A stretch of 64,000 bases of DNA. Origin: Phapecoctavirus DIJ07P2. This document shows, piece after piece, positions 39,777-48,655 of this stretch; position 1 is the stretch's first letter; every line of letters begins with the position of its first letter. The stretch is from the sequence record OZ035771.1, one strand, 5' to 3'. Under the pieces are notes generated by a model. It did not search any database. It was not told where the DNA came from and saw nothing but the letters and a program-made list of their open reading frames with translations. Made by a program: the position numbers and the translations under genes.

Positions 39777-40577
39777 TTATTTGTTTAAATGGTCTTCAAC
39801 CATTTTGATAAAGCCTTCATCACTGAAGACTGTTCCTGCTTTCTCTCGGTAGACAAGCACTCCACGTTCTTCGTAGAGAGTTTGTTCTACAAAATTCAAA
39901 CCTGGGTTAACTACAACCATCTTAACCCCAATATTCAGGGCAGGGAAGAGTTCCCAGTTGAAGTTGATTACTTGGTTAGAGCAGCCTACAACGATAACCA
40001 TATCTTGTGATGTTAGTTGATCCAGTTTGTGATACATGTCTGTGTAGAGCGGTGCATTCTCACCAAAAAACACCACATTAGGCTTCACATATTTGTAATC
40101 GTCTACATCAATAGCTGCGTAACCCACATCTTTGATAATTTTGTTATCAACAACAACTTCTGGCAAGAAACCATGAACGTGCAATATTTCTTCTCTATCG
40201 ATTCCAGCGCGTTCTAATAGATCGTCAACGTTAGTAGTGATGTTAATAATCCTTTCTGCACCGTATTTTTCGAACCATTCTCCAATCTGAAGATGTGCTG
40301 GATTCGGGTCAACTTTCTCTAATTCCACGCGACGTTTATTGTAGAAGTCGTGAGTTTTACGGTAGAGGTTATATCCTTCCACATCTAAGCCACCCATAGC
40401 ATCAGGAATACCCTGTTCTTGCTGATAACCGGCACGGAAGTTGAAAATGTCACAAACCTCAGAAAGATCATAAGAAGACCATAACGCCTCCCCTGAAGAA
40501 GTATCTGTTCTAAAAGCTGGGATACCGCTATCCACAGATAGTCCTGCGCCAGTTATGAATATGACTCTACGCGGCAT
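39777..40577 (-). CDS. SIR2-family (sirtuin-like) NAD-dependent protein, zinc-ribbon-less
   Basis: GAGLSVDSGIPAFR, TTNVDDLLERAG, LHVHG, VVFFGE, VVGCSNQV motifs; no CxxC pairs. Confidence 0.7.
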   Translation of the reverse strand: MPRRVIFITGAGLSVDSGIPAFRTDTSSGEALWSSYDLSEVCDIFNFRAGYQQEQGIPDAMGGLDVEGYNLYRKTHDFYNKRRVELEKVDPNPAHLQIGEWFEKYGAERIINITTNVDDLLERAGIDREEILHVHGFLPEVVVDNKIIKDVGYAAIDVDDYKYVKPNVVFFGENAPLYTDMYHKLDQLTSQDMVIVVGCSNQVINFNWELFPALNIGVKMVVVNPGLNFVEQTLYEERGVLVYREKAGTVFSDEGFIKMVEDHLNK

Positions 40578-41307
40578 AAATCTCCTCCTTATATTTTTCG
40601 CAAATGCTTTTATTTGCAGGTTTATATTTTTCTTTCATCACCTTCAATCTTAGCTTCTCCAGAGCTATAGCACATCTCTCTGGATCGTTGAAACCATATT
40701 TGCAATACGTGGTCTTGTCAAACACAAACTTGAAAAAGAATGTTCTCTCTCTTGTTGCCACAAACACACAACTTAATCCTGAAGTGTTATCTATACGCTT
40801 CTTTTCTTTTTTGATATAAGATCCTTTCAAAATTTCTTGTTTTGCTAAAGCTCTAGCTACAATAGCTTCCTCTTTAGTTTTGAAACCTGAAACAGAGAAA
40901 GTTTCTTGGTTGTAGTTTATAACCCAAAGAAAAACACCATCCTTTTCATAAATACCTTCTAACCCATCCACATGTCTATTATTATTATTTAATAAATAGT
41001 TACTATCTAATAAATTACTTTCCGCATTATTAAGTTTATTGCCGTCGTCATGGTCTATAACATCTGGACAGTAATTATGGTACATTTTAAAACAAACTCT
41101 GTGCTCCAAGTATACAATACCATCTATTTTGACATGAGAGTAACCAACTTTATCAATAGTCCCTGCAATCTTCCCTGCGTATCTGCTATTCCACCTTTTG
41201 TTCTCTTTTGTTGTAGAAGGTTTAGGTTTCCAAACAAGACGACCATTCTCCACACTAAACCTTGATAACAAGTAATCTCTATCTGGTAAGGGTTTTCGTT
41301 CTATCAT
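40567..41307 (-). CDS. Freestanding homing endonuclease (HNH with AP2-like DNA-binding domain)
   Basis: HRVCFKMYHN...IDHDDGNKLNN HNH-like motif and VSGFKTKEEAIVARALAKQE AP2-like segment; overlaps SIR2 start by 11 nt. Confidence 0.65.
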   Translation of the reverse strand: MIERKPLPDRDYLLSRFSVENGRLVWKPKPSTTKENKRWNSRYAGKIAGTIDKVGYSHVKIDGIVYLEHRVCFKMYHNYCPDVIDHDDGNKLNNAESNLLDSNYLLNNNNRHVDGLEGIYEKDGVFLWVINYNQETFSVSGFKTKEEAIVARALAKQEILKGSYIKKEKKRIDNTSGLSCVFVATRERTFFFKFVFDKTTYCKYGFNDPERCAIALEKLRLKVMKEKYKPANKSICEKYKEEIYAA

Positions 41308-43576: not shown

Positions 43577-44248
43577 TCAATAACCTCCTTCGTAAGGTTT
43601 CACCTTAGCCCTATCATAATATAACATCTCTGCCTCCTTCCGTTTACGAATAGCTTCTTCTTTACTGTTACCATAGTATAAACTAATATGCTCTCCATTG
43701 ACTCGGATGTATGCAATCCATTTGCCCCTATCTTTTCTGTATTTTACCCCACAAATACCGGATAGATTATCTTTCCTTAGTTTTTGATCATAAGATTGCA
43801 TTGCGAGTGAAGCCCACTCACAGGTTTCTTTGCTATAAACATCAGCAGAATTAATTCTGTTTAAGGTTGTGTTTTGTGGTCTACTACCCATATCCTCAAC
43901 GAAATTCAAAAAACCTAAGTCCCCCTTCTCTAACCATCTACAGCATACAGAAACTCCACTACCTCCATACTTAGGATAATTCGGTGAGTTCTCATTGGTG
44001 CACCTGTCTATCATGGCATTGTAGGAATTATATGTATATCTATCCTCAATGAACTTGTAATGGTAACGCTCACAACCACAAGATTTAGTTTTACCAGATT
44101 TTAATCTTTCGGCTGTAGTAACAAACTTCTCACCGCAATGACAAATACAATTCCATTTTGTAGATCGTCCAGTCTCCTTAATTGCTACATCAAGAACTGT
44201 TATACCATTGAATACCATTCCAGACAGGTTTTCTAATTTCCTCCCCAT
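43577..44248 (-). CDS. Freestanding homing endonuclease-like protein with AP2-like domain
   Basis: Cys cluster CICHCGEKF...SCGCE and ICGVKYRKDRGKWIAYIRVNGEHISLYYGNSKEEAIRKRKE AP2-like segment; start moved to M27. Confidence 0.55.
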   Translation of the reverse strand: MGRKLENLSGMVFNGITVLDVAIKETGRSTKWNCICHCGEKFVTTAERLKSGKTKSCGCERYHYKFIEDRYTYNSYNAMIDRCTNENSPNYPKYGGSGVSVCCRWLEKGDLGFLNFVEDMGSRPQNTTLNRINSADVYSKETCEWASLAMQSYDQKLRKDNLSGICGVKYRKDRGKWIAYIRVNGEHISLYYGNSKEEAIRKRKEAEMLYYDRAKVKPYEGGY

Positions 44249-44249
44249 A

Positions 44250-45185
44250 CTATTCCTCAAAAGGTTTAAGTAAGTGTTTATTAGCGTGGAATCTTTTGAT
44301 GTAATCATCTTCTCCCATACTTTCATAAAGCTTCATCACGACATGGAAGGATTCATAGGCATATTCACGAAACCAACCACTAGTGATAGATGTGCAAACT
44401 TTAGATAAAGCCATCATAAAACTTTGCTTAGGTGTTGGACCTCCGATCTCTTCACCGAAAGGAATTTGTGAACGTTCCAAAGCCAAAACACACGCTTCTT
44501 CATAAACACCTAACAGGCGCACATGTTTTGGTTGAGCAAAAAACTTTTCTTTGCTGGTCATAACTTCACTTCCATCTTTCATATAAGATTTATATGCTGG
44601 AGCATCCATTACCGCGATTGCTTCATGGATAGAATCATGATCATAAACATACGGAACCTCATCACCTTTAAAGAAGTCTTTACTTTTTACGTTTAAGTTC
44701 GGATGAGAGTAAGTGTATGTTTCTTTCTCACGCAACTCATAAATACTCTTAAGATTTTCTGGGATCTTTGCGCCCAGTGACCGCATGAAATGAATATCTT
44801 TCATAGTTTTAAAGAAGTGAGGACTATCCTTTTTAAAACGATGACTCATTTTAAGAAGGTAGAGCACATCTAAAGGAGCAACAACATGTCCAGCGTAAGT
44901 TCGACGAACATCATCAGAATCTTCACAATAACTAATCAAAGCTTCTGTGCTATCTCCTTGAGAAGCAATATCGTATTCCAAATGTGCACCAGCTATCATT
45001 TTGACGTGGCCTTTGTTCCCTTTACGTTCTACAAGTTCAACAAACTCGTCTTGAGAGAACATTTTTGATAATTCTTCCCACTCTTGTTCTGTACAGAGAT
45101 AATCTAAATCTACACAAGGGCGATACAAGTCTTTTCCCATGTCCATAGCATGAATTTGTAATGCACGGCTACCAATTAACACCAT
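44250..45185 (-). CDS. Hypothetical protein with possible Pol-beta-type nucleotidyltransferase motif
   Basis: LIGSRALQIHAMDMGKDLYRPCVDLDY loosely resembles GS...D.D signature; speculative. Confidence 0.4.
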   Translation of the reverse strand: MVLIGSRALQIHAMDMGKDLYRPCVDLDYLCTEQEWEELSKMFSQDEFVELVERKGNKGHVKMIAGAHLEYDIASQGDSTEALISYCEDSDDVRRTYAGHVVAPLDVLYLLKMSHRFKKDSPHFFKTMKDIHFMRSLGAKIPENLKSIYELREKETYTYSHPNLNVKSKDFFKGDEVPYVYDHDSIHEAIAVMDAPAYKSYMKDGSEVMTSKEKFFAQPKHVRLLGVYEEACVLALERSQIPFGEEIGGPTPKQSFMMALSKVCTSITSGWFREYAYESFHVVMKLYESMGEDDYIKRFHANKHLLKPFEE

Positions 45186-45245
45186 AATATTTCTCCTCTA
45201 TTGGTTGATAGGTTAAGTTTATCAAGCTTCCAGATTTCTGTCAAT

Positions 45246-45266
45246 AAAAAACCCGCCGAAGCGGGT
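45246..45266 (-). terminator. Intrinsic terminator on minus strand (ACCCGC-TTCG-GCGGGT + T-tract)
   Basis: Third copy of the same hairpin as 16018/39114, inverted. Confidence 0.6.
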
Positions 45267-45275
45267 TATTATTTA

Positions 45276-45548
45276 CTAACACATTGAGGAAGAAGAGATC
45301 CAAACACCTCTTGTGGTTAAACCATTTTCATCCAACTCTACACCATAATCTTCACAAATGAAATCAATATAGTGATCTGCGGCTGGCGTTCCTGTAGGGT
45401 AATAAGTTTCTCCGTTACCGTAGTCACCTATCCAAGCTTGTTCCTGAAACTGTTCACAAAGTTCTTCGATTTCCTTACGAAACTTTCTTTGTGCTTGTTC
45501 CATCTCTTTAACTTTCTTTTTTATCAGCAGTTCGCCTTCAGACTCCAC
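45276..45548 (-). CDS. Small acidic protein, W-SSS-C-tail family member 1
   Basis: Ends ...GVWISSSSMC. Confidence 0.55.
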   Translation of the reverse strand: MESEGELLIKKKVKEMEQAQRKFRKEIEELCEQFQEQAWIGDYGNGETYYPTGTPAADHYIDFICEDYGVELDENGLTTRGVWISSSSMC

Positions 45549-45557
45549 AATCTCTCC

Positions 45558-45773
45558 TTAACAGCTACTACTGTGCCAAACGCCTTGAGAATTAACGACG
45601 AAACCATCATCACCTTCACCATAACAAGAAGAGGATTGCCAATCTTCAAAACAGATTGCGTTATCTTCTAAACTAAGACCAAAACCAGCATCTTCAGCTT
45701 CTTTTGTAAGTTCGTCCACTAAAGCCATAATAGCTTGGGCTTTTTCAGTTAATTCTTCAACATTACGATCACT
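45558..45773 (-). CDS. Small acidic protein, W-SSS-C-tail family member 2
   Basis: Start moved to MSDRNVEEL after GGAGGAG RBS; internal EDWQSSSC and C-terminal GVWHSSSC. Confidence 0.55.
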   Translation of the reverse strand, partial: SDRNVEELTEKAQAIMALVDELTKEAEDAGFGLSLEDNAICFEDWQSSSCYGEGDDGFVVNSQGVWHSSSC

Positions 45774-45775
45774 CA

Positions 45776-46051
45776 TTAGTATTTCTCCTCCGGTTGGAAA
45801 ACTGAACGACAAGCCCACATACTAGCTTCTTTTAAATGTTTAATAGCACAACGGATTTGATCAATACGCTCGTATGCAACATCTAATTCTTTTTCTGTGC
45901 CGTCAAAAGACCCATGATATGCTTCACAATACTCTTCCTCTAAAGCTTTGAAGATTAAACCTAAACGCTCTTCTGCATCTTTAATAGCGTTAACCTTGCC
46001 AATCTTATCGTCAGTATGCGCCTTATAACCTTTGATATCTTCGATTCCCAC
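45776..46051 (-). CDS. Hypothetical protein (about 91 aa, GTG start)
   Basis: AGGAGG RBS 5 nt before GTG. Confidence 0.45.
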   Translation of the reverse strand: MGIEDIKGYKAHTDDKIGKVNAIKDAEERLGLIFKALEEEYCEAYHGSFDGTEKELDVAYERIDQIRCAIKHLKEASMWACRSVFQPEEKY

Positions 46052-46062
46052 TTTACCTCCTA

Positions 46063-46260
46063 TTAACAACTTAAAGAAGATGGATGCCAATTTGTCCCAG
46101 TATTCTCATTTTCATCTTCTGGATCATAATAACCACCCATCCCATATTCAGGGGAGAAACGGAAACCTTCTCCAGTCTCGTCTGCTAACTGCTCTGCTTC
46201 CGCTAAAGCATCATAAGCTGCTTTTACGGCTTCTTCTACTGTTTTAAACTTGGTCGTCAT
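46063..46260 (-). CDS. Small acidic protein, W-SSS-C-tail family member 3
   Basis: Ends ...TNWHPSSLSC; GGAGAGGAG RBS. Confidence 0.55.
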   Translation of the reverse strand: MTTKFKTVEEAVKAAYDALAEAEQLADETGEGFRFSPEYGMGGYYDPEDENENTGTNWHPSSLSC

Positions 46261-46534: not shown

Positions 46535-47025
46535 AAAACCTCCTCAATTTTGTAGTTTGACTCCATCTCCAACACATTTCCACGAACGTCTCTCCGAAGA
46601 AAGGCATAAGCTTTATTAGGTATTGTAGACTCATATTTAACCATATCTGGCACAGCAAAAGATACTACTACTCCTGCTGGGCTTCTGTCAAGAGCCTTAT
46701 TAATATTTCTAAGGATATCGTTAGCCAAGATTTCTGCCAATTCTCCAAGAACAGTTTCTGTTATATCTTTATATCCCATTAAGTATTTGTTGATATCTTT
46801 CATCTCCGTATTGTTCAGAGTATAGTCCAAAGGATAGAAATTCAAAGCGGAGTCACTTTTATGTGTCCACATGAAATGCACCCGATCCGAGCAGAATCGT
46901 AACCCTCTTTGAAGAATATCTTCTACAACAGGCAGAATTTCTTTTGTCACATCATTAACCATGTTGTAATCTAAGATTTCTGCCAAGTTTGTTCTTTGTT
47001 CACCACGTTTACGTTTAGGAATCAC
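46513..47025 (-). CDS. Hypothetical protein (170 aa)
   Basis: ORF in operon. Confidence 0.5.
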   Translation of the reverse strand: MIPKRKRGEQRTNLAEILDYNMVNDVTKEILPVVEDILQRGLRFCSDRVHFMWTHKSDSALNFYPLDYTLNNTEMKDINKYLMGYKDITETVLGELAEILANDILRNINKALDRSPAGVVVSFAVPDMVKYESTIPNKAYAFLRRDVRGNVLEMESNYKIEEVLWQSSDQ

Positions 47026-47620
47026 TTGTTATTGCCCTCATTACCAAAGGTCGTAGAAAATCGTAAATCTCTTGTTTTGTTTTCCCACGAATGTTTAAAC
47101 AAGGAACATTATTGGCTTTAGCTATCTTCCAAGCCGTAGCTGTTCCACCTTTTGCATCTCCATGTTTATCAGTATTAGCACAAGCCAACAAGAAACATGA
47201 TGGAGCAGGATTCTCCAAATCTCTACCTAACACTTGATGCACATTACGTTGGTGCAATTTTCTAGCACCCTGCTTAAGCTTTTCATAGGCTGGGTGAACA
47301 TCTTTGATCCATTGCACAGAGATAGCATAGTTCATTGTATCTGGTTTTGCAAGAACAATAACATCCCCTGGAATCTGATTACCTTTGAAATTTTCCCAAG
47401 GAACATAAATCTCCTTGTTAGTAGGATTTTCAGACTCTTGGACACCTGTTTCAAAAGCAGAATCACTACCCTCTGCCTTCCCAGACCTTAATTTAAACCC
47501 AAGGTTTGAAAGCCATTTCCCTATGCCTACCATCAAAGCCCACTCTTCTTCGGATATGTCTCTACTTCCAACTCCCGTATAGAACAGTTCTGCCATAATC
47601 ACCTCAACAAGTAATTTCAA
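47015..47620 (-). CDS. DprA/Smf-like (SLOG Rossmann-fold) protein
   Basis: YTGVGSRDIS, LRSGKAEGSDSAF, HQRNVHQVLG, GGTATAWKIA segments resemble the DprA fold as recalled. Confidence 0.4.
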   Translation of the reverse strand: MKLLVEVIMAELFYTGVGSRDISEEEWALMVGIGKWLSNLGFKLRSGKAEGSDSAFETGVQESENPTNKEIYVPWENFKGNQIPGDVIVLAKPDTMNYAISVQWIKDVHPAYEKLKQGARKLHQRNVHQVLGRDLENPAPSCFLLACANTDKHGDAKGGTATAWKIAKANNVPCLNIRGKTKQEIYDFLRPLVMRAITSDS

Positions 47621-47912
47621 AAGGTGTATAGGGTTCCGTATTTCTCATGATCCAAGGACTGCTAGGATTGCTCGGATCATAAGGACCAAAAGGTTTTATG
47701 GTAGGTTGTGTTTCTTTCTTCTGAATCTCTTCAAAAATACGACGAAGTTCAGAATATTCTTGATCCACCATAAGATTCGGTGCATCTGATTCTACAGCTT
47801 GCAGATTATCTTCCTTAAAAAGAATCTCACGAACAAGATTAACATCTTCTGTTTCTAAGATAACTTCTTTACGGATATTGCCTACACTTTGAATAATTGT
47901 AATCTTATACAT
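47604..47912 (-). CDS. Hypothetical protein (102 aa)
   Basis: ORF in operon. Confidence 0.5.
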   Translation of the reverse strand: MYKITIIQSVGNIRKEVILETEDVNLVREILFKEDNLQAVESDAPNLMVDQEYSELRRIFEEIQKKETQPTIKPFGPYDPSNPSSPWIMRNTEPYTPFEITC

Positions 47913-48655
47913 TAATCCTCCTCAAGAGTTGAATAAAATTGAAGACCACCGTCCATATCGAAATAAGCAAATGTTAAGTTATTATTGAACACAGATCCAG
48001 TATCCATATAAACACGATTCGCATTGATAATAGGTGTTTTTACATAAGAGTGTCCATGAAACACATAGTCCACACCCATCACAACAGGAAGTTTCATTCC
48101 CTCTTTAGCACAGTCCACCATATCTCTGTCCCACATAAGTGCTTCAGCAAAACGGTTTTCCTGTGTTTTTGTCATCTTCAAAGTGTATTCTGGAATATCT
48201 GTTACAGGGAGATATTCCAAAGAAGATGGATACCCACCATGAATAAACGCAAGTTTCATGCCTCTGTAGTTAACAATGAGAACAACAGGTAAATCTTCTG
48301 TCATCATTGCTAAGGCTGTAGCTCCTTCTTCACCACATTCTTCAAGGACTGTATATCCTCCATTTTGATACCAACACTCGAAGTAGCTACGATCTCCTTC
48401 CAGCATAGCTTTAATCATCATGTCTTCATGATTTCCACGAATAGCATAGCGATTGTGTTTACGAGTAAATTCTAAAACACAACGAAAGTTTTGCTTTCCA
48501 CGGTCAGTAAGATCTCCTAAAGATACAACTACATCTGTATCTCGGATACCTAACTTTGCCTTTCCTTTTTCATACAAATTATAACAACCGTGCAGATCTC
48601 CAATTATAAAAAGATCTTGATCGCTTTTAACAGTAATTTCTCTATGTATGATCAC
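47912..48655 (-). CDS. Ser/Thr protein phosphatase (metallophosphoesterase)
   Basis: GDLHG, GDLTDRG, GNHE calcineurin-like motifs. Confidence 0.8.
   Translation of the reverse strand: MIIHREITVKSDQDLFIIGDLHGCYNLYEKGKAKLGIRDTDVVVSLGDLTDRGKQNFRCVLEFTRKHNRYAIRGNHEDMMIKAMLEGDRSYFECWYQNGGYTVLEECGEEGATALAMMTEDLPVVLIVNYRGMKLAFIHGGYPSSLEYLPVTDIPEYTLKMTKTQENRFAEALMWDRDMVDCAKEGMKLPVVMGVDYVFHGHSYVKTPIINANRVYMDTGSVFNNNLTFAYFDMDGGLQFYSTLEED

Follow-up and report, generated by a model that had tools for sequence, protein, structure and literature searches.

Among the closest described systems, MenA1 is a 68-aa (amino acid) antitoxin with a long helix, which is encoded upstream of the toxin MenT1 and blocks the active site of MenT1 (PMC7450476, PMC10435456). 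MenT toxins phosphorylate their own active-site residue, Thr39 or Ser78, when the antitoxin repositions it (PMC11375011). MntA adenylylates its partner HepT (PMC7641770), which sets a precedent within the superfamily for the modification of a partner protein. The present analysis concerns a stretch of 64,000 nucleotides (nt) from Phapecoctavirus DIJ07P2 (sequence record OZ035771.1), hereafter called the window, where three small genes on the minus strand between positions 45276 and 46260 encode the acidic proteins A, B and C with a common C-terminal tail that ends in Cys. The family of proteins bearing this tail and the enzyme encoded by a DUF7277/DUF7275 gene form a two-part phage module, in which the linkage is seen in both directions.

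The features of the locus, in the direction of the genes, are as follows.

46063-46260, minus strand: gene of tail protein A, 65 aa, isoelectric point (pI) 4.1, YGMGG type, ending in ...TNWHPSSLSC, with the tail W58-H-P-S-S-L-S-C65 at 46066-46089.
45776-46051, minus strand: Acb2/Tad1-hairpin gene, 91 aa, GTG start, not a member of the tail family.
45558-45776, minus strand: gene of tail protein B, 72 aa, pI 4.05, with its ATG at 45776, ending in ...GVWHSSSC, with the tail W67-H-S-S-S-C72 at 45561-45578.
45624-45641, minus strand: internal tail copy in B (EDWQSSSC, residues 44-51), W46-Q-S-S-S-C51, with YGEG directly after it.
45276-45548, minus strand: gene of tail protein C, 90 aa, pI 4.4, GTG start, GDYGNGETYYP type, ending in ...GVWISSSSMC, with the tail W83-I-S-S-S-S-M-C90 at 45279-45302.
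45250-45267, minus strand: hairpin resembling an intrinsic terminator (AACCCGC-TTCG-GCGGGTT, then a T run), directly 3' of gene C.
45216-45244, minus strand: sigma-70-like promoter before the enzyme gene (TTGACA, 17-nt spacer, TG, TAAACT), a consensus match only.
44250-45185, minus strand: partner enzyme gene, 311 aa, Pfam DUF7277 (N-terminal) and DUF7275 (C-terminal), PHROG 2141.

The three leftward reading frames with their tails are all present on the minus strand, as described beforehand from the letters alone. The coordinates given in that preliminary description are right for A and C; the start of B lies at 45776 instead of 45773, which makes B the same 219-nt coding sequence as annotated in phage Schickermooser. 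The three genes had also been called adjacent, which does not hold, as A and B are separated by the Acb2/Tad1-hairpin gene. The enzyme gene starts 91 nt downstream of the stop codon of gene C on the same strand. It lies just past the terminator, outside the interval considered by the preliminary description, and supplied the decisive context.

The linkage was examined in enzyme-centred viral loci, namely the best 80 of 201, all of which have at least 41% identity to the query enzyme. At least one open reading frame (ORF) with the tail is present in 76 of the 80 loci, and the count rises to 79 when variant tails are included, where three of the four exceptional loci carry tails with 1–2 residues after the Cys. 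All 228 tail ORFs found in this way lie on the strand of the enzyme gene, against none among 10,379 opposite-strand ORFs, and 214 of them are situated upstream of the enzyme gene at a distance of no more than 3 kb. Between the enzyme start and the tail gene closest to it, the median gap is 311 nt, with many gaps of 8–20 nt, and the tail genes form arrays of 1–6 genes per enzyme locus. Clustering of the same-strand ORFs of these loci indicated that the tail family is the sole neighbour conserved across lineages, with no third component.

The association was also found when the search began from the small proteins. The enzyme gene lies 11–200 nt downstream in all four metagenomic contigs retrieved via the tail proteins, and in Merlin, 44RR2.8t, IME08 and a metagenomic contig the tail genes are likewise followed closely by a DUF7277/DUF7275-type gene. 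Alignments of the small proteins contain no conserved stretch of 7–10 columns, and a further probe was a degenerate DNA pattern that encodes YGMGGTYYP and relies on neither the tail nor the enzyme. This pattern identified 13 loci, where every such ORF ends in the tail and the enzyme gene follows directly downstream in 10 of the 10 loci that are long enough to tell.

The linkage persists in Phapecoctavirus, in several genera of Straboviridae, in Acinetobacter, Pseudomonas and Stenotrophomonas phages, and in jumbo phages. Of 50,697 phage records, 715 contain the enzyme; one of them is RB69, where ORF137c and ORF136c are tail proteins and ORF134c is the enzyme. Among 185,579 species genomes, no more than 6 have it, each time on a contig of a metagenome-assembled genome, and tail genes are present in five of these six as well. 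An assignment of the enzyme to bacterial defence or to a bacterial toxin–antitoxin gene pair was dropped, the gene being nearly absent from bacterial genomes. Among the long-form enzymes (approximately 300 aa), tail genes are kept down to approximately 39–40% identity to the enzyme of the window, a range in which a few loci were checked individually; they include Acinetobacter phages, with tail genes upstream of the long-form enzyme, and Pseudoalteromonas phage H101, in which a protein ending in ...EWYESRC is encoded upstream of it.

The strength of this association bears on the question of whether the tag needs the enzyme at all. The tag could be a short linear motif directed at a host target, for instance by acting as a thiol warhead, by ligating a metal in a host enzyme or by docking through its Trp; the linkage would then mean no more than that the genes have a pathway or an accessory island in common. 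The tag is fixed while the bodies diverge fast, the extra W-[DE]-S-S repeats of the linker would fit multivalent binding, and the neighbouring genes are of the counter-defence type (Acb2 here, NAD-salvage-like genes in AB1I1T, Moby and K412, and an ADP-ribosyltransferase gene in DLP3). However, a linkage as tight as 79/80 in the forward direction and 4/4 and 10/10 in reverse, held across many phage groups with no other conserved neighbour, is a pattern typical of direct functional partners and not of co-residence in an island; Acb2, by contrast, is clearly not conserved with the array. An enzyme-independent tag is considered rather improbable. To take the G-W repeats for a GW-type "Argonaute hook" would be purely speculative.

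The proteins of the window were compared with one another and with shuffled sequences. All three match PHROG 899, with E-values of 6.1e-13 for A, 9.5e-6 for B and 5.1e-14 for C, in each case in the C-terminal part of the profile, and in their alignment Y-G, W, S and the terminal C are invariant. From these comparisons, A, B and C are true paralogs, as the preliminary description had proposed, and they look expressed. Their pI values range from 4.05 to 4.4 with net charges of −10 to −13, which agrees with the acidic character noticed before. The pattern W.{1,3}SS.{0,3}C$ selects exactly A, B and C among the 1873–1874 six-frame ORFs of the window. When the residues of all window ORFs were shuffled 500 times, 0.088 tail matches per set were obtained, against the three observed, and shuffling each of A, B and C alone gave tail probabilities of 1e-5 to 2.4e-4. 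A chance origin of the three tails, including one due to composition, is therefore excluded, and the tail is a conserved feature common to the paralogs.

No significant match to A, B or C was obtained in Pfam, NCBIfam or PADLOC, and a sequence-profile search of the PDB returned nothing for them. The B-type protein differs from A by a 13-residue insertion that duplicates the tail and is fused directly to the YGEG turn. This type is kept in Merlin, 44RR2.8t and IME08 in the form DW[LQMN][SN]S[SAD]CYGE...W.[SP]SSC, i.e., with the terminal tail and the internal copy together. The homologs of C (P0008, P0010 and P0022–P0028) retain GVWISSS[SEQ]MC.

The AlphaFold2 model of A has a pLDDT of 86.9 and contains a helix at residues 8–29, consistent with the helical N-terminal region claimed earlier, which packs on a three-stranded sheet that includes the strand of W58. 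The residues F33, Y39, G42, G43, W58, S61, S62 and C65 of A are invariant across 50 homologs, and C65 is its sole Cys.

The same model is relevant to a function of the tag in sorting, where it would mark the proteins for capsid packaging and injection, for export or for proteolysis at a set time. Arrays of diverse small proteins with only a short terminal tag in common, located in plastic regions of T4-like genomes, do resemble internal-protein loci, and the array of RB69 lies in the e.2-e.3 region. However, the Trp strand is folded into the domain in the AlphaFold2 model, and signal peptides are lacking in the tail proteins, whose N-termini are acidic helices. The conserved partner is a nucleotidyltransferase and not a protease, a portal or a capsid component, and the genes are placed among early-type accessory genes behind sigma-70-like promoters. 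A sorting signal is regarded as very unlikely.

A tblastn search with B matched 324 phage records, including many T4-like phages of Escherichia, Aeromonas, Klebsiella, Enterobacter, Citrobacter and Serratia. A family profile built from 17 sequences was searched against 1.84 billion cluster representatives at E ≤ 1e-3, which yielded 480 clusters at 50% identity, and nearly every match reaches the last residue of the protein. The recurrence of the motif in homologs, on which the earlier proposal depended, was seen in T4-like phages and metagenomes, where the tail is kept at the C-terminus in 166 of 175 retrieved sequences. The family thus described is large and essentially restricted to phages, and it consists of small (approximately 60–120 aa), strongly acidic alpha/beta proteins with a median net charge of −8. 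The common body comprises an amphipathic acidic helix, an F-x-F strand, a Y-G-M-G-G-x-Y-x-P turn and an acidic linker, which in many members contains extra degenerate W-[DE]-S-S repeats; the same tail is also borne by other body types. A, B and C all show the family features, i.e., the terminal Cys, the Trp 5 or 7 residues before it, the Ser at W+3, the small acidic body with a helix and a short beta unit, and the same-strand DUF7277+DUF7275 neighbour.

In the tail logo, which was built from 371 sequences, the long form G-[G/E]-W-[V/I/Q]-[S>P,A]-S-S-x-x-C-COOH accounts for 82% of the members and the short form W-x-[S/P]-S-[S/N]-C-COOH for 14%. The Trp is located 5 or 7 residues before the terminal Cys, and the Ser at W+3 is present in 304 of 305 long tails and in 53 of 53 short tails, where the last residue is Cys. 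As judged from these alignments, the minimal invariant of the family is W-x-x-S...C, in which the Cys ends the protein. The data do not support a metal site within the molecule, which is one sense of the metal binding suggested in the preliminary description, and this site and a disulfide of the tail were both rejected, as 169 of the 371 members (46%) contain no Cys beyond the terminal one.

Two observations were made on altered members of the family. In RB69, ORF139c (...VGDYGSGRTYYPKG...) and ORF138c (...ITEGAWVSSPALC), at 1472-1778 of locus L113, together resemble a single C-type tail gene that an apparent frameshift in the RB69 reference sequence has cut in two. In Acinetobacter phages (locus L112, 2883-3068, and locus L116, 2530-2706), an array member with a decayed tail that has lost the terminal Cys, ending in ...TWSSSWSSSNE and ...VWHNSNWSNSES, is located beside intact members.

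The residues that are fixed in the tail also invite a comparison with ribosomally synthesised and post-translationally modified peptides (RiPPs), in which the enzyme would activate the Ser by phosphorylation or nucleotidylylation to give dehydroalanine, and the Cys would add to it to form a lanthionine-like or AviCys-like C-terminal ring or leave an electrophilic warhead. The invariant residues are exactly the chemically reactive ones, and A and C end in Ser-x-x-Cys-COOH, from which lanthipeptides of the epidermin type build their C-terminal ring. Transfer of phosphate to Ser or Thr is within the abilities of this enzyme family (PMC11375011). However, the spacing between Ser and Cys is not fixed, as the Cys follows the W+3 Ser by two or four residues and position −3 of the short form is often Pro or Gly, and a conserved "core" behind a variable "leader" is the opposite of what RiPPs show. 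Between 39.8 and 48.7 kb, no gene has a Pfam domain of a lanthipeptide dehydratase, cyclase or decarboxylase, and the sole match to a lanthipeptide model is noise (NF038148 for B, E = 0.11, 12.4 bits against a cut-off of 25). The tails were thus rejected as lanthipeptide-type RiPP precursors, because maturation enzymes are lacking nearby and the Ser-Cys spacing varies, and RiPP-like chemistry in general is judged highly improbable.

For the partner enzyme, the Pfam matches are DUF7277 with E = 8.7e-14 and DUF7275 with E = 8.7e-75, and the AlphaFold2 model has a pLDDT of 92.4. In this model, the N-terminal part is a Pol-beta-fold nucleotidyltransferase. Its G5-S6, where a helix begins, its D26-x-D28 in strand 2 and its E70 in a strand further on do not vary among 64 enzyme sequences. 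The active site looks intact, since the catalytic pattern G-S...D-x-D...E of Pol-beta nucleotidyltransferases is invariant. The top structural neighbours are the toxins MenT1, MenT3 and MenT4, and the modelled fold is closest to the MenT/AbiEii tRNA-modifying toxins and the ANT/Lnu small-molecule nucleotidyltransferases. In Pfam only DUF7275 and DUF7277 were matched at E ≤ 0.01, with no match to DUF1814; a profile search of PDB sequences with the enzyme matched neither MenT nor AbiEii, nor any other entry, and PADLOC gave no match. The DUF7275 domain is helical, with SHRFKK, YDHDSIHEA, ALERSQIP and KVCTSITSGWFREYA as its most conserved blocks, and it is more conserved than the catalytic core. 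Such a higher conservation would be expected if DUF7275 binds the invariant tag. A tie of the enzyme to phage tRNA genes was discarded, as the window contains no tRNA genes.

These structural neighbours point to an arrangement similar to toxin–antitoxin pairs, in which a MenT/AbiEii-like toxin would modify tRNA 3' ends or another nucleic acid, and the small acidic proteins would inhibit or regulate it. The tail might then plug the active site, or the terminal Cys might ligate a metal bound by the enzyme, and the small proteins would not be the physiological substrate. Besides the structural similarity to MenT1, MenT3 and MenT4, the gene order and the partner size are the same as for MenT1, which is encoded downstream of the 68-aa MenA1; the intergenic gaps are very short in many loci; strongly acidic partners could mimic nucleic acid; and the invariant His, Asp, Glu and Cys of DUF7275 could hold a metal. 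However, arrays of 2–6 divergent paralogs per single enzyme gene are unlike antitoxins, and the phages are lytic (T4-like, phAPEC8-like and jumbo phages), with no obvious use for an addiction module. The enzyme shows no Pfam match to DUF1814, and in the window the partners are split by a terminator and a promoter. A, B and C also show no homology or fold similarity to a known antitoxin. The toxin–antitoxin-like arrangement, including the version with the plugged or metal-ligated active site, is thought unlikely, with a real chance of being correct.

The simplest account of the data is that the tail is the recognition element of the enzyme, since an invariant reactive tail is carried on fast-diverging bodies, the genes occur in arrays, and the nucleotidyltransferase is an obligate partner. 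That the tail is recognised or docked by the enzyme seems somewhat more probable than its contrary, a judgement based on sequence conservation and gene order. For the broader proposal, in which the tag is the handle or acceptor by which the nucleotidyltransferase engages the small paralogs, our preference is tentative and stops a little short of even confidence. In this mechanism, the tag would be a common handle that docks each paralog onto the enzyme; the hydroxyl of the invariant Ser at W+3, and possibly the thiol of the terminal Cys, would enter the active-site cleft as an acceptor of a nucleotidyl or phosphoryl group; and each paralog would owe a target or role of its own to its divergent body. 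It is also a possibility that the bodies act as adaptors and steer the enzyme to different targets.

Covalent modification of the tail, with the Ser and perhaps the Cys accepting a nucleotidyl or phosphoryl group, is a more doubtful step than docking and would be a possible outcome instead of the expected one. The same doubt applies to the corresponding system of a tag and its writer, in which the nucleotidyltransferase would mark the W+3 Ser or the terminal Cys of small acidic effectors by nucleotidylylation or phosphorylation. A shared modification was among the suggestions of the preliminary description, and the linkage of the tail to a nucleotidyltransferase gene lends it indirect support, as it does to recognition.

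Several points weigh against the tail serving as a handle for the enzyme. The AlphaFold2 model places the Trp strand in the sheet of the small protein, so the tag is partly structural and perhaps less free to enter an active site. The enzyme itself is acidic (pI 5.7), so there is no global charge complementarity with the tail proteins. In Stenotrophomonas phage Moby the tail genes are located downstream of the enzyme gene, and in the window a terminator and a promoter lie between gene C and the enzyme gene, where the two halves are not strictly co-transcribed. The 80 enzyme-centred loci were the best of the 201 and had at least 41% identity, and more distant long forms were checked only individually. 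The gene order, the size of the partner and the nearest structural relatives suit an antitoxin–toxin pair about equally well, and all that goes past the genetic linkage, docking and modification included, is what we infer from it.

The short-form enzymes (approximately 250–260 aa), which are found in Streptomyces, Gordonia and KVP40-like or Vibrio phages, are without tail genes. They adjoin one or two members of another small uncharacterised family without a Pfam match, at the following places.

L109, 4600-5292: short-form enzyme locus of Streptomyces phage Annadreamy.
L110, 4603-5360: short-form enzyme locus of Gordonia phage Bachita.
L111, 3411-3707: short-form enzyme locus of Vibrio phage phi-pp2.
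L117, 4551-4916: short-form enzyme locus of Vibrio phage K412.

The members of this partner family have ...RYF[QR]KTGYY[DN]SW...EV.P..KTIT.Y in common, with a core of the type aromatic-x-x-Ser-aromatic (GYYDSW, GWYQSY, YSYYSY). The parallel of this core with W-x-x-S may be meaningful.

The region of approximately 2 kb around the array is 98–99% identical to the Escherichia phages nieznany, Schickermooser, phAPEC8 and their relatives (genus Phapecoctavirus), and the genes in the matched part of the Phapecoctavirus records are all annotated as "hypothetical protein". In Schickermooser, a terminator is annotated at the same place as the hairpin after gene C. The array of the window is tightly packed, where the stop codon of the Acb2 gene and the ATG of B overlap by 1 nt. 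The product of the Acb2 gene matches PF24729 (Acb2_Tad1_hairpin) over profile positions 1–58 of 58, with E = 1.3e-16 and 60.9 bits against a cut-off of 27. The Acb2 gene is a lineage-specific insertion into the tail-gene array, because A, B and C are contiguous without it in the related phage locus L007. Acb2 homologs are found 4–5 kb from the array in Merlin-like phages and are missing in L007, a close relative. A functional tie between the array and Acb2 was ruled out, as Acb2 homologs are not in the arrays of other loci.

The other genes of interest in the window belong to the same strand.

43577-44326, minus strand: HNH endonuclease ORF (PHROG 374, E = 1.5e-62), after the enzyme gene, whose 3' end the longest reading overlaps by 77 nt.
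40567-41307, minus strand: ORF adjoining the SIR2-family gene, with a match to an HNH endonuclease model below threshold.
39777-40577, minus strand: SIR2-family gene (PF02146, E = 2e-20), which shares the leftward block of the enzyme gene and lies approximately 3.7 kb downstream of it.
47015-47620, minus strand: DprA-like protein gene (PHROG 768, without a Pfam match), upstream in the same leftward block, the first listed of a pair with the next gene.
47912-48655, minus strand: calcineurin-like phosphoesterase gene (PF00149), the second of this pair, annotated as a Ser/Thr protein phosphatase in related records.

The HNH endonuclease ORF is probably a mobile insertion, because it is missing from the corresponding position in Schickermooser. 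A protein phosphatase gene near a module that is predicted to modify Ser may be a coincidence.

Outside the window, the module lies beside genes of PRPP synthetase/ribose-phosphate pyrophosphokinase and of nicotinate or nicotinamide phosphoribosyltransferase in Acinetobacter phage AB1I1T (locus L112, 4827-7466) and Vibrio phage K412 (locus L117, 1-2723). In Stenotrophomonas phage Moby (locus L115, 1-172), only the gene of a nicotinate/nicotinamide phosphoribosyltransferase (NAMPT-like) is found beside it, and in Acinetobacter phage DLP3 (locus L116, 4683-4997) a putative ADP-ribosyltransferase gene takes this place. An NAD-related neighbourhood thus recurs around the module, and this company of the counter-defence type is an association only. 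A role of the module in host takeover or counter-defence would be compatible with the proposed mechanism and is weakly suggested by its location among early-type accessory genes near Acb2, NAD-salvage and SIR2 genes.

An invariant reactive tail on fast-diverging bodies beside one enzyme is rare and usually marks dedicated chemistry, such as a tag with its writer or an inhibitor with its target. The module is carried by phages that are relevant to therapy and as models, including phAPEC8-like phages, many T4-like genera, Acinetobacter and Pseudomonas phages and jumbo phages. Modification of the tail, if it occurs, would amount to a new system by which viruses modify proteins, and perhaps to a new class of effectors for counter-defence. 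If the enzyme writes on the tag, more than 700 sequenced phages including RB69 might use protein–nucleotide conjugates, or a C-terminus made reactive, to act on functions or defences of the host. If the small proteins instead inhibit the enzyme, the module would be a lytic-phage version of the MenT/AbiE toxin–antitoxin systems with a new mode of neutralisation. As RB69 is a model phage with the module (ORF134c, ORF136c and ORF137c), genetics and biochemistry are feasible.

The preliminary description had not recognised the tail proteins as a described family, and no functional description was found for PHROG 899, DUF7275/DUF7277, the motifs or the RB69 ORF names; the family does already exist in catalogues as a cluster of hypothetical proteins, PHROG 899. 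PHROG 899 and CDD PHA02102, the latter cited in the GenBank note on the Schickermooser ortholog of B, are unannotated clusters without a record of the tail motif, the breadth of the family or the link to DUF7275/DUF7277. Literature searches on PHROG 899, DUF7275/DUF7277, the motif strings and the RB69 ORF names returned nothing relevant to the module, and neither did those on Acb2 with Phapecoctavirus, on phAPEC8 anti-defense and on T4-like hyperplastic paralogs.

The comparison with known systems also covers two groups of small phage proteins. The internal proteins IPI-III of T4 have a common capsid-targeting sequence, which is N-terminal and cleaved by the prohead protease. Like the tail family, they are tandem, fast-diverging and small, are located in plastic regions of T4-like genomes and share only a short terminal tag; the tag of the tail family differs in its C-terminal position, its richness in Ser and Cys and its linkage to a nucleotidyltransferase. 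Acb2, an anti-CBASS cyclic-nucleotide sponge, resembles the tail proteins as a small, acidic product of an early accessory gene, and differs from them in its unrelated sequence, the lack of the tail and the lack of conservation with the array.

The systems that are closest to the module contain a nucleotidyltransferase. In MenAT, AbiE (DUF1814) and the pair MenA1-MenT1, the enzyme has the catalytic pattern G-S...D-x-D...E as in the phage enzyme, and the phage partners, small proteins of approximately 65–90 aa that begin with a long helix, have their genes close upstream of the enzyme gene, as MenA1 has relative to MenT1. However, the phage enzyme shows no sequence-level relationship to MenAT/AbiE (no DUF1814, no PDB profile match) and contains a large extra conserved helical domain, DUF7275; its partners form arrays of 1–6 divergent paralogs with the C-terminal W-x-x-S...C tag; and the module is essentially confined to phage genomes. 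To our knowledge, this tag is found in no MenA or AbiEi. In the type VII system HepT-MntA (PMC7641770), a Pol-beta-superfamily enzyme is encoded beside a protein that is modified on a side-chain hydroxyl, as is proposed here for the tail Ser. The partner in that system is a HEPN RNase modified on Tyr and MntA is a minimal nucleotidyltransferase without DUF7275, whereas the phage partners are tiny acidic proteins without an RNase motif and their modification is a proposal only. The fold class of the enzyme and the arrangement of a small partner with a MenT-like nucleotidyltransferase are thus already known; what is new about the module is its C-terminal tag, its arrays of paralogs, its DUF7275 domain and its confinement to phages.

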